DNA of 64,000 nucleotides from a virus (IMGVR_UViG_3300006793_000015:50470-114469), one strand, 5' to 3'; positions 12,852 through 29,231 are shown, counted from the stretch's first letter. The notes: generated by a model from the sequence alone, not told the origin. Translations and numbers: made by a program.

Positions 12852-13877
12852 ATGAGTAACAATAATCTATTTAAAAAAGTAGCAGTTTGTACAGATATAC
12901 ACTTCGGAAATAAAAGCAATTCAACTACACACAATCAAGATTGTGAAGACTTTATTGACTGGTTTATAGAAACGGCGCACAAAAACGATTGCGAGACTTG
13001 CATGTTTTTAGGCGACTGGCATCACCAGCGAGCAAGCATTAACGTCCATACGTTAAACTATAGTTTGCGTAGTTTGGAAAAGTTGGGTAAATCTTTTGAG
13101 AAGTTTTACTTTATTACAGGCAACCATGATCTCTACTACAGAGATCGTCGTGATCTAAACAGTGTTGAATTTGCTAGTAGATTTCCTGGAATTTCTATTG
13201 TAAATCAAACAATTAACGAGGGCAATGTTGCTATTGTTCCGTGGTTAGTTGGTGATGACTTTAAGAAAATTAAAAAAATTAAAGCAAAGTATATTTTTGG
13301 ACACTTTGAACTGCCTCACTTTTACATGAACGCTATGGTACAAATGCCGGATCACGGCGAACTTTATGCTGACGACATGGGACATGCAGACTACGTGTTT
13401 AGTGGTCATTTCCATAAAAGACAACAGCAAAAGAATGTAATATACATTGGTAATTGCTTTCCACACAACTATGCTGATGCGTGGGACGATGATCGTGGCA
13501 TGATGATGTTGGAATGGGATGGTGAGCCAGAGTATGTTGCTTGGCCTGATGCTCCATCATATAAAACACTAAAACTATCGCAACTGTTAGAGAATCCTAC
13601 GCAGTATTTAGATAGTAAAACATACGCAAGAGTAACAATGGATATTGACATTAGTTACGAAGAAGCAAACTTTATCAAAGAAACATTTACAAAAGAGCAA
13701 AGTGTTCGCGAGTTAAGTTTATTACCGAATAAAGAGAAACAAGACCTTGACATTATTGATGAGGATATTCAACTTAACTTTGATAGCATCGATTCAATTG
13801 TTAGTGACCAATTAGCCAACATTGAAAGCGAGCATTACAATCCACAAACGTTGTTAGAAATATATAGGAACATTTAA
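12852..13877 (+). CDS. gp47: Recombination endonuclease subunit, gp47/SbcD/Mre11-like
   Basis: Metallophosphoesterase motifs DIHFG, GDWHH, GNHD, GHFE, SGHFH. Confidence 0.92.
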   Translation: MSNNNLFKKVAVCTDIHFGNKSNSTTHNQDCEDFIDWFIETAHKNDCETCMFLGDWHHQRASINVHTLNYSLRSLEKLGKSFEKFYFITGNHDLYYRDRRDLNSVEFASRFPGISIVNQTINEGNVAIVPWLVGDDFKKIKKIKAKYIFGHFELPHFYMNAMVQMPDHGELYADDMGHADYVFSGHFHKRQQQKNVIYIGNCFPHNYADAWDDDRGMMMLEWDGEPEYVAWPDAPSYKTLKLSQLLENPTQYLDSKTYARVTMDIDISYEEANFIKETFTKEQSVRELSLLPNKEKQDLDIIDEDIQLNFDSIDSIVSDQLANIESEHYNPQTLLEIYRNI

Positions 13878-15637
13878 TGTTAGTCTTAAAATCTCTGACA
13901 GTAAAGAATTTTATGAGCGTGGGTAACCAAACCCAAGCAGTTAGTTTAGACAGACAGGATCTCACACTTGTTTTAGGTGAAAACTTAGACTTAGGCGGCG
14001 ATGATGCCGGCGCTCGTAATGGTACAGGCAAGACTACTATTGTTAATGCGTTGAGTTATGTGTTGTATGGACAAGCATTAACAAATATTAAAAAAGATAA
14101 TTTAATCAATAAAACAAATGCCAAAGGCATGTTAGTCACTGTTGAGTTTGAAAAAGACGGTGTACATCATCGTATAGAACGTGGCAGACGACCGGGTATT
14201 TTAAAATATTATTCAAACAATGACGAGGTTGATCAAGCGCAAGGCGAAAATAGACAAACGCAAGATCAAATAGAAGAAGCAGTTGGTATGTCGCATACAA
14301 TGTTTAAACACGTTGTGGCACTTAACACATACACTGAGCCGTTTCTTGCTATGCGTGTATCAGATCAACGTGACGTTATTGAGCAGTTACTCGGTATTAC
14401 TTTGCTGTCTGAGAAAGCAGAAAAACTTAAAGAGATTATAAGACAAACAAAGGATCTTATTACTGAAGAAGAATACGCAATCAAAGGTAAGCAACAAGCA
14501 AACGAGAATATTGAGAACACTATTAAAAGTCTCGGCATAAAACAAAAAGCGTGGGTAGAGTCTCGCAACAAAGATATTGAGAAAATAGACAATGCTGTTA
14601 AAGAACTTGAAGCTGTCGAGATTGAAGAGGAAATAGCACTACACACTAAAAAAGCAAACATAGAGCAGTTAGAGTCTAAACTGCGTGGATATAACAGAGA
14701 ACAGTCAACTTCTAAGAACTTATTATCCAAATATAACAAGGAGTTAGCGCGGTTTGAGAAGAATATATCACAAACCGAGGATAAAACATGCCATACTTGC
14801 GGACAAGCATTACACGACGAAATACACCAAAAGATGCTTGCGGATTTGGAAGAACAAATAACTGAGCATAAACAATCTATTAAAGCAGAAGAGAAAAACT
14901 TAGCAACTGTTACTAAAAAAATAGAAGAAATTGGTACTATTGATTGGTACGAAGAAACGTTTTATGATGATATTGCTAGTGCTTATAAGCATGATAGTAG
15001 TTTAGAGCATTTGCGTAATACTTTAGTAGAGAAGGCAGAGGAAGAAGATCCGTATAAGTCTCAAATTGAAGATCTACAAAATTCTGTTTTACAAGAAATT
15101 AATTACAATAAATTAAATGAATTAGTGTCTCTTAGAGAGCACCAAGAGTTTTTAGCACGATTGCTAGTTAATAAGGACTCATTTATTCGCAAAAGAATTA
15201 TTGATCAAAACTTAGCATTGTTAAATAAAAGACTAAGTTATTACTTAGACAAGATTGGATTACCACATGCTGTAATGTTCTTGAACGATTTAAGCGTTGA
15301 AATTACAGAGTATGGGCGTGATCTAGACTTTGATAATCTTAGTAGAGGCGAACGAAATAGACTTATTTTAAGTTTATCTTGGGCGTTTAGGGATGTTTGG
15401 GAACACTTATACGACAACATAAACCTGCTAGTTATTGACGAATTAGTTGATAGTGGTATGGATGCGTTAGGGTTAGAAGGTAGTATAAGTATTCTTAAGA
15501 AATTTTGTAGAGATAGAAATAAAAGTGTATTTCTTATCTCGCATAAAGATGAACTGGTCGGGCGTGTGCATAACGTTCTGACAGTTACAAAAGAAAATGG
15601 TTTCACAAATTACAGTGACGATATAGAAATCATGTAA
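13877..15637 (+). CDS. gp46: Recombination ATPase subunit, gp46/SbcC/Rad50-like
   Basis: Walker A NGTGKTT, coiled coil with CHTC zinc hook, signature LSRGE, Walker B VIDE, ISH. Confidence 0.93.
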   Translation: MLVLKSLTVKNFMSVGNQTQAVSLDRQDLTLVLGENLDLGGDDAGARNGTGKTTIVNALSYVLYGQALTNIKKDNLINKTNAKGMLVTVEFEKDGVHHRIERGRRPGILKYYSNNDEVDQAQGENRQTQDQIEEAVGMSHTMFKHVVALNTYTEPFLAMRVSDQRDVIEQLLGITLLSEKAEKLKEIIRQTKDLITEEEYAIKGKQQANENIENTIKSLGIKQKAWVESRNKDIEKIDNAVKELEAVEIEEEIALHTKKANIEQLESKLRGYNREQSTSKNLLSKYNKELARFEKNISQTEDKTCHTCGQALHDEIHQKMLADLEEQITEHKQSIKAEEKNLATVTKKIEEIGTIDWYEETFYDDIASAYKHDSSLEHLRNTLVEKAEEEDPYKSQIEDLQNSVLQEINYNKLNELVSLREHQEFLARLLVNKDSFIRKRIIDQNLALLNKRLSYYLDKIGLPHAVMFLNDLSVEITEYGRDLDFDNLSRGERNRLILSLSWAFRDVWEHLYDNINLLVIDELVDSGMDALGLEGSISILKKFCRDRNKSVFLISHKDELVGRVHNVLTVTKENGFTNYSDDIEIM

Positions 15638-15668: not shown

Positions 15669-15848
15669 ATGTCAACAATTCATGAGCAAATCTTAGAGCA
15701 AGTCGAAACATACGTTAGCGAATCTTCAAAGTTTGAGGATAAGGGTGTAAAAGCCGCGGCCGCTCGCGCTCGTAAAGCGTTAGGCGAAATTGGTAAATTA
15801 GCTAAAACACGCAGGGCTGAGATTCAAGACAAAAAGAACGCAATGTAA
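15669..15848 (+). CDS. Small basic histone H1-like (Hc1-family) DNA-binding protein, 59 aa
   Basis: Below the track cutoff. AAGGAG SD at 15655-15660. MSTIHEQILEQVETYVSESSKFEDKGVKAAAARARKALGEIGKLAKTRRAEIQDKKNAM; KGVKAA.xRARK resembles the Hc1 N-terminal domain. Confidence 0.7.
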   Translation: MSTIHEQILEQVETYVSESSKFEDKGVKAAAARARKALGEIGKLAKTRRAEIQDKKNAM

Positions 15849-15851
15849 TTA

Positions 15852-16355
15852 ATGCCCAGTAAGCAAAAAATTAAAGGCTCTACATGGGAACGCGACGTTG
15901 CTAAACACTTATCTGATTTATACAGTGAGACGTTTATTCGCGTACCTCATAGCGGGTCTTACATTGGTGGAGTAAACAAAGCAAGGAAGGAATTTTTACA
16001 CGAAGGACAAATACGTTCTTTTAAAGGAGATATCATTCCAGGTCAAAGTATGCCTTTACTCAATATTGAGTGTAAGGCATATAAAGACTTTCCATTTCAT
16101 CATTTGTTTGGACAAGACGTAAAACTTTTAGATGATTGGATAGCACAGTTGTTAGAGCCTGCTGACGAAGGAGACTTTAACATCTTAATAATGAAATTTA
16201 ATAGAAAAGGCAAATACATAGCAGTAGAAGATAGGCACACCACACTAAAATTCAATAGGCACATTAACTATAAAGGTTGGAACTTTTGTGAGTACGATAA
16301 TTTTTGGGCTCACAACACTGACCAAGTTAAGCTTCTCTCAAGTACACAAAACTAA
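15852..16355 (+). CDS. PD-(D/E)xK nuclease, Holliday junction resolvase-like
   Basis: KGSTWERDVA...SG...GDI...IECK pattern of Hjc-type resolvases. Confidence 0.7.
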   Translation: MPSKQKIKGSTWERDVAKHLSDLYSETFIRVPHSGSYIGGVNKARKEFLHEGQIRSFKGDIIPGQSMPLLNIECKAYKDFPFHHLFGQDVKLLDDWIAQLLEPADEGDFNILIMKFNRKGKYIAVEDRHTTLKFNRHINYKGWNFCEYDNFWAHNTDQVKLLSSTQN

Positions 16356-16359
16356 ACTA

Positions 16360-16710
16360 GGCACAGACACAAGACATCTACAATGCGGTTAAGACCCGCT
16401 CTCCTTGACGGTGTAGCATAAGCACACTGGGATTCTGGAGATGATGACAAAAATTTAGCGTATTAATTATTTCAGGGCTAAAAAGACGAGGGTAAAAACC
16501 TCGCGTCTATTATTTGTTGAAACTGTAGCACTTAATAGATACCGTTTGTTGGCGTGATAGCCAGGAGACTGTGGTAGGGAGTACAGGACAACCGCTTCCG
16601 TGTTTAACAACAATCCACAACAGTTTACAGGTCGGGACTGAAGGAAAAAGTCTAACCACACTTCACCCAGTCGGGTGGAGTGTGAACGGAACTTCGGGAA
16701 AAAGTTAATC
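16360..16710 (+). ncRNA. Candidate large structured non-coding RNA (unassigned; strand assumed)
   Basis: No credible ORF, GC-richer than the flanks, many stem-loops, e.g. 12-bp stem CACACTTCACCC/GGGTGGAGTGTG at 16657-16684 with a G-U pair on the + strand. Confidence 0.45.
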
Positions 16711-16792
16711 AAAAGAACTTTAGTTAAATAGTATTATACTCTTTTAAAAGTGATTTATATAAATTTAGTTCGAGCTGTAAGCGAAGAACTAG

Positions 16793-17524
16793 ATGAACGT
16801 AGTTCATCTCATAATGCAGAAACAAATAAAAACATCTTTCGGAAAACAAGAAAATAGAGAAATTATTATTAATGAGATATCTTTGACTGATGTTTCTGCA
16901 GAAGAAGAACATTTAGCAATAGAGCAAGGATTTCTTATTGATGTTTTAGATGATGAATATTGGTTTATGTCGCGATCCACTCGTGTTATTACTAATAGCG
17001 TTGATGCGAAGGAATACGACGGAAAATGGGAACTAGTAGAAACTCTTACTCCAGACCTTATTAAGATTCTGCGTAAAATATTAAATCAATACGTACAAAA
17101 ACATAACTTCAAAGACTTTGAACGGTCATTAAACGAAACTAAAAGAACAAAGTTTTTTATCTACTATCATAATAGTAGAATAGTTGCGTTTACCAAGATG
17201 CAATTTTATCCTGAAATTGATCAAAGCGTAGAGCATCCACATAAAAGTGTTGAAACATGTATGTTTGCGTGGGACTATAAAAATCCAGAACTACGTCTCG
17301 GAGAAGTAACACTACAGCACGAAGTATATTGGGCACAACAAGAAGGATTTAAGTATTTGTATATAGGTCCTGGGTATGAGAAAAGCAGTATCTATAAATC
17401 AAATATTTCTGGATTTGAATGGTGGACAGGTATGGAGTGGAGTAAAGATACTGTTGAGTATAAAGAGTTGTGTAAGCGTGACAGTAAAATAAGAAGTTTT
17501 AAAGCGTTAACTTCTTTAGACTAG
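16793..17524 (+). CDS. Aminoacyl-tRNA-protein transferase-like protein (ATE1/Bpt C-terminal GNAT-like domain)
   Basis: AWDYKNPELRLG...LQHEVYWA...GFKYLYIGPGYEKSSIYK resembles the ATE_C pattern (YDP...SLG...L.EI..A...G..Y.YLGY.....M.YK); real start may be ATG 16814. Confidence 0.6.
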   Translation: MNVVHLIMQKQIKTSFGKQENREIIINEISLTDVSAEEEHLAIEQGFLIDVLDDEYWFMSRSTRVITNSVDAKEYDGKWELVETLTPDLIKILRKILNQYVQKHNFKDFERSLNETKRTKFFIYYHNSRIVAFTKMQFYPEIDQSVEHPHKSVETCMFAWDYKNPELRLGEVTLQHEVYWAQQEGFKYLYIGPGYEKSSIYKSNISGFEWWTGMEWSKDTVEYKELCKRDSKIRSFKALTSLD

Positions 17525-28476: not shown

Positions 28477-28577
28477 TGACTAAATAATACTGCTTACTAA
28501 TGGGTAGTAAGTTTATGGGGACTAACCCTCCTCGTAGCGGATAGAACCCGCAACGGACTTCTAAAAGGAGAAATAAA

Positions 28578-29231
28578 ATGGGTAGACCATTAAACAAAAA
28601 ATATTTTGGTAATACAAATGATTCAGGACTAGGCGGCGAAGGCGTTGCTTCAGTAACAGTCACAGGCGCTGGTACAGGCTATACAGACGGTGATGCAGTA
28701 GTTTTCAGCGCACCTCAACTTCCAGGCGGTGTTACTGCAACTGGTGTTGTTGTTGATGATGGTGCCGACGGCACAGTTAATTCAATATCAATTACTAATG
28801 CAGGTTCAGGCTATACATCAGCACCAACTATTGACTTAACAGGAGAAGGTAACGGAGACGCCACAGCAACAGCCACATTAACCACATCTGGTGTTAACGC
28901 AATCGCATTTTCATCATATGTTGATGGCGGTAGCAATCAAACAGACGGCGATATTGTTAAACAAGTAGCCGCAAGACGCTTCAAAGTTACAAACTCAGAC
29001 GGCACAGGCACATGTAAACTAGTTGCAGCTACACCAAGCGCAGCTGGAGAAATGATGATGAGTGCTACGGACTCATCTGGTAAGACATACTATGTAACAA
29101 AGATTTCTGCTCGCAAAGCAACTTTAACACAGTATGGTGCAGGTGGTCATGAATTTACTGACGGCACATCACAAAAGTGGTCATTTGATTCAGCAGTATT
29201 AAATGATTCAGTACAATTAGATAATAACTAA
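28578..29231 (+). CDS. Virion structural protein (possible head decoration)
   Basis: Follows the capsid gene with its own TAAATA, strong SD and terminator; Gly/Thr-rich with repeated ITxxGxGYT beta motifs. Confidence 0.55.
   Translation: MGRPLNKKYFGNTNDSGLGGEGVASVTVTGAGTGYTDGDAVVFSAPQLPGGVTATGVVVDDGADGTVNSISITNAGSGYTSAPTIDLTGEGNGDATATATLTTSGVNAIAFSSYVDGGSNQTDGDIVKQVAARRFKVTNSDGTGTCKLVAATPSAAGEMMMSATDSSGKTYYVTKISARKATLTQYGAGGHEFTDGTSQKWSFDSAVLNDSVQLDNN

Follow-up and report, generated by a model that had tools for sequence, protein, structure and literature searches.

RNAs that are both large and highly conserved but have no known function are seldom found, and time and again such RNAs have opened up new biochemistry. 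GOLLD, ROOL, and OLE are RNAs of this kind: large (>350 nucleotides, nt), multi-domain, pseudoknotted, phage-borne, and strongly conserved, with a biochemical function that is unknown. Here we describe a family of RNAs of roughly 350–560 nt, represented in a stretch of viral DNA of 64 000 nt (IMGVR_UViG_3300006793_000015:50470-114469, hereafter the window) that belongs to a 114-kb fragment of an uncultured giant T4-like phage. The RNA of the window occupies positions ∼16372–16809 of the + strand (∼440 nt). It resembles GOLLD, ROOL, and OLE in size, pseudoknotting, and conservation, yet it is not matched by their Rfam models, and to our knowledge none of the three has a counterpart to a feature of the present family, a pair of short single-stranded boxes that covary so as to remain identical to each other.

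A smaller described RNA also touches the family. The Polynucleobacter-1 motif (RF01718) was listed as a probable cis-regulatory candidate from Burkholderiales and from fresh water and estuary (Weinberg et al. 2010, PMC2864571). Its habitat is similar to that of our family, but it is without the pseudoknotted core, the twin boxes, and the two-hairpin 3′ tail (hp1–hp2) described below, and its cis-regulatory listing is unsupported by the synteny that we observe.

A conserved structured RNA on the + strand

The original prediction had singled out positions 16356–16710 as an unusually long, hairpin-dense, G+C-rich interval without a credible gene, and had proposed that it encodes an undescribed structured RNA. 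The gap is indeed free of genes, the flanking ones ending at 16355 and most likely beginning at 16814; the small open reading frames (ORFs, 45–81 codons) inside it have no Pfam match, and its G+C content of 0.43–0.475 exceeds the ∼0.33 of its flanks. The proposed 3′ limit proved too short, as the RNA runs on for ∼100 nt through an AT-rich linker and two further hairpins. The + strand of 16356–16792 folds at −121.8 kcal/mol (z −3.73), a value equalled by none of 100 shuffles, compared to a z of only −1.22 for the − strand. This strand-specific fold, together with invariant G–U pairs in one of the helices (P_B, below), upholds the earlier assignment of the RNA to the + strand, which had been made from G–U pairs.

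Homologues were collected by searching IMG/VR with the protein of the adjacent resolvase gene, which gave 80 loci, 37 of which contain the RNA according to iterated nhmmer searches. The RNA is 97% identical to that of the window at locus L001, 82% identical at L002–L006, and recognizable at others. A strict 26-nt pattern taken from its most conserved loop retrieved at least 119 further viral contigs. Conservation and covariation, proposed in the original prediction as a means of checking it, are both strong among these homologues. In an alignment of six close relatives (A2, with L001, L002, L007, L009, and L011), 19 of 66 predicted pairs show compensatory changes. For wider comparison we built a covariance model, R1, which covers the 3′ core only (164 positions), and aligned 80 matches; it finds 16545–16710 of the window with 99.3 bits (E 1e-20, model positions 1–164). 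Across the 79 distinct sequences of the resulting alignment (A5), paired columns hold standard pairs in 98.0% of cells, compared to 81.1% in shuffles, compensatory two-sided changes occur in 16 of 22 pairs, and the covariation score is 0.455 as against 0.146; none of 500 shuffles matched the observed values, and sliding the partner columns out of register lowers pairing to 47–57%. We are thus highly confident that the gap holds a functional structured + strand RNA that belongs to a large family.

Architecture of the core

The conserved 3′ core (16545–16710, + strand) comprises a pseudoknot, a three-way junction of the helices P_A, P_B, and P_C, and then box 1, the hairpin P_D, and box 2. P_A (CTGTGG/CCACAACAG, 16568–16574 with 16615–16624) encloses both P_B (GGGAG at 16577–81 with CUUCC at 16595–99) and the small hairpin P_C (16600–16611); changes on both sides were found in 4/4, 2/5, and 3/3 of their pairs, respectively. 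P_D, a 12-bp hairpin lying between the boxes (16657–68 with 16673–84), has compensatory changes in seven of its eight modelled pairs. P_B contains invariant G–U and U–G pairs that would become C–A if read on the opposite strand, and these therefore fix the strand as +.

Within the conserved P_B loop GUACAGGACAACCGC, the tetranucleotide CAAC (16589–16592, + strand) pairs with GUUG (16548–16551, + strand) to form a true pseudoknot, which was absent from the stems initially listed for this gap. Throughout the family, the NNRAC of the P_B loop (GUAC.GG..AACCGC) pairs with a GUYNN located just 3′ of a conserved CCG, 30–45 nt upstream. The two strands occur as GUUGA/UCAAC, GUCAG/CUGAC, GUCAU/AUGAC, GUCGC/GCGAC, GUUGC/GCAAC, and other combinations, with at least eight compensatory variants, and their mean pairing of 4.50 out of 5 compares to 3.69 ± 0.13 when the partners are shuffled (1000 shuffles, none above 4.18).

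The fate of the stems that were initially proposed varies. Compensatory changes among relatives support P_A and P_D, as well as GCGG/CCGC (16385–88/16396–99), TCTATTA/TAATAGA, and TGGC/GCCA, while TTTAGC/GCTAAA and CTACA/TGTAG are not conserved. CGAGG/CCTCG is probably conserved, in that a hairpin of different sequence follows the same GGCUAAAAAGA motif in L036 and L040, two loci with an RF01718-type 5′ domain; this comparison was made by eye and its changes were not counted.

Twin boxes that covary to stay identical

Box 1 (ACUGAAGGAAAAAGUC, 16637–16652, + strand) and box 2 (AACUUCGGGAAAAAGUU, 16690–16706, + strand) are direct repeats that share the core GGAAAAAG, at 16643–16650 and 16697–16704, respectively. 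They had originally been taken as two similar small hairpins flanking the 12-bp stem. The similarity is real, but the stems are lost in relatives, and the elements are better read as single-stranded direct repeats. Both are purine-rich, and they follow the layout ...A–CUC–N7 on the 5′ side of P_D and ...A–UCU–N7 on its 3′ side. The N7 heptamers are identical within each RNA and vary between phages: 25 different box-1 cores and 23 box-2 cores occur among 73 sequences, e.g. AGAUGAU, GGAUAAU, AGAUCAA, AGCUGAA, GUCGGAA, and ACCGAA.

Columns in the same register of the two boxes, 56 positions apart in the alignment, share mutual information at the level of base pairs (1.0 for d98/d154 and 0.93 for d100/d156). 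The two columns are identical in a fraction 0.96 of sequences for d98/d154 (expected 0.46), 0.96 for d100/d156 (expected 0.47), 0.85 for d94/d150 (expected 0.47), and 0.64 for d89/d145 (expected 0.23). Between RNAs that are 85–90% identical outside the boxes, both boxes had changed in 48 pairs and one alone in none; at 75–85% identity elsewhere, the corresponding numbers are 200 and 2. When the box columns are left out of tree building, ∼20 changes of d98 map to each box on the resulting tree, yet only 22 changes of the joint label are needed, and the boxes are matched at 70 of 73 tips. The same holds at close range in a metagenome-assembled genome (MAG) of Haliscomenobacter, where two contigs carry RNAs that are >90% identical and show an A to G difference in each of the two boxes.

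No complementary partner emerged from several searches. The locus contains no exact complement of the box core, a scan tolerating G–U pairs gave peaks that did not hold up, and mutual information revealed no aligned column covarying in a complementary manner with d94, d98, or d100. Duplex energies calculated from −260 to +150 showed no preference of a locus for its own boxes over foreign ones, with the exception of a single weak signal. Copies of the box are not enriched in neighbouring DNA (65 sense and 37 antisense, as compared to 56 and 30 expected), no trans partner was found in the phage's own 114-kb contig, and the box motif is no more common in the genome of Escherichia coli phage 121Q than a control. 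Hammerhead or C/D-box cores, CsrA sites, anticodon-loop mimics, stop-codon mimics, and gene-60-style bypass sites were also considered for the boxes and rejected, as either their defining nucleotides vary among family members or there is no reading frame.

The 5′ domain, the linker, and the hp1–hp2 tail

The 5′ domain (16372–16540, + strand) is specific to the clade of the window, and includes the hairpins GCGG/CCGC (16385–16399) and CGAGG/CCTCG (16487–16503), followed by a long hairpin at 16505–16540. In four relatives (L036, L040, L059, and L069), RF01718 instead scores 87–104 bits at ∼40–100 nt 5′ of the start of the R1 core, whereas that model (threshold 37 bits) matches neither the window at E ≤ 10, nor the whole contig, nor any of 16 other members scanned. 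Because RF01718 matches the four relatives and not the others, the 5′-most domain is modular and clade-dependent, with RF01718 covering one version; the 141-nt Polynucleobacter-1 motif is hence the 5′ domain of one branch of a larger RNA. The early proposal of an undescribed RNA accordingly stands for the window, which remains unmatched, and needs amending for this sub-branch, whose 5′ domain had been described.

On the 3′ side, the core is followed by an AT-rich linker (16707–16765, + strand) in which neither sequence nor length is conserved (5–83 nt in relatives, median 40), and then by two hairpins. The first, hp1 (16766–16791, + strand), has the variable outer stem UAGUUC/GAACUA and the conserved loop GAGC–UGUA–AGCGAA, which reads as a tandem G–A, an inner helix of 2 bp, and a small loop. 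The family pattern is a freely covarying outer stem that encloses G–A–[NN]–(3–4 nt)–[N′N′]–G–A–(A), and all six modelled pairs are compensatory. Elsewhere in the 114-kb contig the hp1 loop motif recurs only once, on the − strand outside the window, and this match is probably due to chance. The second, hp2 (16791–16809, + strand), is the perfect hairpin AGAUGAAC–GUA–GUUCAUCU, whose counterpart in L007 is AGUUGAAC–GUA–GUUCAACU; relatives have a perfect stem of 7–9 bp, usually with a GUA or GAA loop, in which the stem sequence varies freely and pairing is always kept. In most relatives hp2 adjoins the stop codon of a convergent gene, and it has no U-tract. A structure-based detector found the hp1–hp2 tail at 59 of the 68 loci with enough downstream sequence.

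Comparison with catalogued RNAs

Rfam searches of the window, at gathering scores and at E ≤ 10, returned nothing relevant (chance-level matches only, E ≥ 0.4), and no Rfam family falls in the gap even at the looser setting. In particular, the window contains no covariance-model match to GOLLD, ROOL, OLE, HEARO, RNase P, tmRNA, group I or II introns, riboswitches, or small ribozymes, and ARAGORN found no tRNA or tmRNA in it. Rfam and ARAGORN therefore agree with the first reading of the sequence, in which no resemblance to tRNA, tmRNA, RNase P, or intron cores had been seen. A second catalogued RNA is present elsewhere in the window, at 28493–28580 (+ strand), where a full-length freshwater-2 RNA (RF02980) scores 70.4 bits, well over its gathering threshold of 49.9.

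Synteny and distribution in environmental phages

By nhmmer, the RNA is present at ≥156 loci of IMG/VR phages, in every case in the same orientation as the upstream operon, which ends there with gp46, Hc1, or the resolvase. Where the flanks could be read, the RNA is most often followed by convergent baseplate-hub and DUF6875 genes. As the upstream gene varies and the downstream genes are mostly convergent, the RNA is tied to the end of the gp47–gp46 operon rather than to either neighbour, and the consistent co-oriented downstream gene that marks a cis-regulatory leader or riboswitch was not found. The placement between the resolvase and a tRNA-dependent transferase that was originally noted is correct for the window but incidental, since a transferase-like (ATE_C-like) gene lies downstream in only 8 of 156 loci.

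In the window, the operon consists of a gp47/SbcD-like gene (12852–13877), a gp46/SbcC-like gene (13877–15637), an Hc1-like gene (15669–15848), and, as its final gene, a PDDEXK_15/RusA-like resolvase (15852–16355, + strand; Pfam PF24608, E 2e-24; PHROG 244), whose stop codon forms the upstream edge of the gap; the resolvase lies outside the RNA. The ATE_C-like gene (16814–17524, + strand) likewise lies outside the RNA on the downstream side, and is followed by the convergent DUF6875 and baseplate-hub genes. Its start is probably ATG 16814 rather than the annotated ATG 16793, because the latter sits within hp2. In L007 and other relatives the gene starts at the position corresponding to ATG 16814; this ATG lacks a Shine–Dalgarno sequence.

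Complete aquatic phage genomes of 338–372 kb carry a single copy of the RNA. The sole bacterial assembly containing the 26-nt pattern is that of the Haliscomenobacter sp. MAG (NZ_JBBAKG01), in which contigs of 148 and 183 kb score 161 bits (L211:644–806) and 154 bits (L212:4076–4235); these are probably giant-phage contigs binned with their host. Taken together, this MAG, the Hc1-like gene, and an apparent lack of Shine–Dalgarno sequences (read by eye) hint at Bacteroidota hosts for the aquatic clade.

Multiple copies in cultured jumbo phages

R1 also matches phage 121Q at 193154–193318 with 32.8 bits, and this distant member retains both a compensated pseudoknot (GUUGC/GCAAC) and twin boxes. 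The 561-nt unannotated gap surrounding it matches 62 records of cultured jumbo phages, each with four to five copies, from the hosts Escherichia, Salmonella, Klebsiella, Erwinia, Serratia, Yersinia, Cronobacter, Pectobacterium, and Xanthomonas. Escherichia phages Sharanji, which grows on K-12 MG1655, and PBECO4 are among the carriers. In the deposited records all copies are on the + strand, at a fairly regular spacing of 63–84 kb (55–103 kb in 121Q): at 35.2, 98.8, 177.5, 261.5, and 340.7 kb in GAP32; at 30.3, 93.1, 174.5, 258.8, and 335.4 kb in Serratia phage BF; at 30.8, 103.2, 162.9, 243.8, and 325.8 kb in Salmonella phage 7t3; and at 90.3, 192.8, 247.5, and 326.7 kb in 121Q. They occupy genomic contexts other than the end of the gp47–gp46 operon.

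The box core is CGUCAA in 121Q (followed by A/U or by G/G), and UCGUCAG in both GAP32 and Serratia phage BF. One paralogue of 7t3 has CGUCAAG in both boxes and another has CGUCAG in both; the paralogues thus differ from each other yet match internally, and the identity rule therefore applies per molecule and not per genome.

Some further features are peculiar to these copies. Three of the four 121Q paralogues (L218–L221, columns ∼255–285 of alignment A8) have a box-like third element, GUUGCGUCCAAA, in the 5′ domain; it equals the box plus one extra C, and the segment is missing in the fourth paralogue. Most cultured-phage copies (L227, L236, L232, L235, L231, and L240) have a terminator-like hairpin and, 3′ of it, a run of six U residues between box 1 and P_D and thus within the RNA, e.g. 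CAGUAC...GUACUUUUUU. One RNA locus of 7t3 (L225, 103306–103906) is annotated as three tiny − strand hypothetical proteins, 7t3_0243–0245, which are probably false gene calls, and a similar run of 117–153-nt ORFs occupies the 1.5-kb gap between the resolvase and the baseplate hub in PA5oct (L201:6555–7367).

PA5oct is one of the three cultured jumbo phages, with Phosso and Atu_ph07, that are closest to the window phage by gp46 (43–48% amino-acid identity; 47% for PA5oct). Its ncRNA001–004 were defined by RNA-seq, are 236–619 nt long, and include two that are highly expressed (Lood et al. 2020, PMC7318152). R1 found nothing in ncRNA002 or ncRNA004, which are not detectably homologous to our family, and no homologue in the PA5oct gap between resolvase and hub; scans of the complete PA5oct, Phosso, and Atu_ph07 genomes with R1 and RF01718 gave no credible match. 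Likewise, blastn searches of GenBank phages with the RNAs of the window, L016, and L069 found no match.

Transcription

Six marine metatranscriptomes share a few short words with the window, and contigs of four of them were compared. These four runs yielded scattered contigs of low depth; 16469–16810 is uncovered, which has no bearing on expression. One contig (16321–16468, depth 2.5) bridges the stop codon of the resolvase into the RNA, and gives weak support to co-transcription of the RNA with the upstream gene. As the RNA starts at, or overlaps, the last stop codon of the operon, its probable source is the operon transcript, of which it would form the 3′ end or from which it would be processed.

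Proposed role and alternatives

The reading that we prefer, tentatively and with somewhat less than even confidence, is of a stand-alone scaffold RNA whose core presents two matched boxes as working sites. Since the upstream gene varies and the downstream one is mostly convergent, the RNA is not tied to a neighbour, and it may act as a scaffold or a ribonucleoprotein component rather than as the leader of an adjacent gene. The pseudoknotted core would display the twin boxes, and one two-fold partner per RNA copy would read both as a pair; candidates for this partner are a dimeric binder and a short complementary nucleic acid present twice, or else the boxes would contact each other directly. 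Several observations weigh against such a scaffold. A single phage-encoded binder predicts one box throughout a genome, and the 7t3 paralogues differ; the within-molecule identity rule hence argues against a single box-binding protein of the phage and keeps unusual mechanisms open. In pairing, the region from −200 to −140 slightly prefers its own box 1 over foreign ones (P = 0.02, uncorrected), and a short or G–U-rich cis partner may lie in the unalignable 5′ region or in the linker. A 4-bp pairing of box 1 (AGAU) with an AUCU just 5′ of box 2 can form in the main clade, and is absent elsewhere. Finally, the evidence from RNA libraries consists of only the one low-depth contig across the 5′ junction.

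The leading alternative is a conformational switch, in which boxes 1 and 2 compete for one cis complement and so toggle the fold, for example between termination at hp1–hp2 and read-through. Two repeats that each pair with a third segment are the classical cause of covariation between direct repeats, and in the immunity RNA of phage P4 (CI/seqB, seqA, and seqC) and in attenuators two direct repeats must match and both pair with a third segment. Good complements do occur ∼170 or 120 nt 5′ of the core in some loci (UAUCCAGA in L173, CUUCAUC in L169, and UUGAUUGGGA in L062), and the weak own-box preference at −200 to −140 points the same way. We nonetheless find a switch rather unlikely: unlike in P4, no third complementary segment was found, whether as an aligned column covarying in complement to d94, d98, or d100 or as an exact complement of the core in the locus; own and foreign box energies are otherwise equal from −260 to +150; and most loci have no downstream co-oriented gene to regulate. 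An RNA-primed replication origin, with the fold as pre-primer, the AT-rich linker as DNA-unwinding element, and the boxes as short iterons, is a little less probable still. In T4, several origins rely on R-loop primers, and its oriE is said to include both an RNA and iterons; ColE1 RNA II and the T4 origin transcripts resemble our locus in joining a long folded transcript to AT-rich DNA beside replication and recombination genes, the AT-rich tract here being always 3′ of the G+C-rich fold, and some phages of the family resemble T4 in being multi-copy, with four to five same-strand copies 63–84 kb apart in the cultured relatives. The complete aquatic genomes of 338–372 kb are single-copy, however, the boxes differ between paralogues of one genome, a misfit with one initiator protein, they number just two and measure merely 7–10 nt, and the linker varies greatly in length (5–83 nt). 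The case for priming, made from the AT-rich linker and the spaced copies of cultured phages, is circumstantial.

That the RNA is a cis-acting 3′-end element of the gp47–gp46 mRNA, blocking exonucleases or stopping convergent transcription, would explain why it always stands at the end of the operon, from the stop codon onward, and closes with a perfect hp2 abutting the convergent gene, and it agrees with the RNA-library contig that runs from gene into RNA; a ∼440-nt pseudoknotted fold with invariant loops and matched boxes far exceeds such a task, though, hp2 has no U-tract, and the cultured-phage copies stand in other contexts, which leaves this explanation with a low probability. Lower again we place a ribozyme or self-processing RNA, in which the identical boxes bound a segment, made up of P_D and one box, to be excised or rejoined, and in which their identity would give the same product wherever the cut falls within a box; the large, conserved, pseudoknotted fold with invariant unpaired nucleotides and the identical boundaries of a discrete hairpin are as expected, but there is no Rfam ribozyme or intron match, and no member with a single box and without P_D was seen. 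A decayed gene or chance hairpins, finally, could be suspected from the spurious 45–81-codon ORFs in the gap, a prospect that we consider negligible: Pfam matches none of these ORFs, relatives are told apart by indels and paired compensatory changes and not by codon-like patterns, and the covariation statistics refute it. The degraded coding sequence that the original prediction had kept in mind is excluded on these same grounds.

We know of no RNA mechanism that readily explains why the twin boxes should obey identity. The rule might, although this is a long shot, reflect a mechanism undescribed for structured RNAs, acting on identity and not on complementarity within each molecule; it may be a parallel-stranded, homo-base-paired contact between the boxes, or a strand transfer or template switch between the repeats during RNA-primed DNA synthesis of giant phages, which is comparable to the use of retroviral R repeats.

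Significance

The family is common among the giant T4-like phages found in seas and lakes, occurs in the Haliscomenobacter MAG, and extends to phages in culture on E. coli K-12, Salmonella, Serratia, and Cronobacter, whose copies have been left unannotated or have been annotated as tiny hypothetical genes. The family also shows the Polynucleobacter-1 motif of Rfam to be only a fragment of a much larger RNA. The distant members in 121Q, GAP32, Serratia phage BF, and Salmonella phage 7t3 make the family testable. Its most interesting feature is the pair of twin boxes that co-evolve to stay identical, a clear and testable puzzle whose solution could uncover a novel mode of RNA recognition, or else a device for replication or regulation that is particular to jumbo phages.
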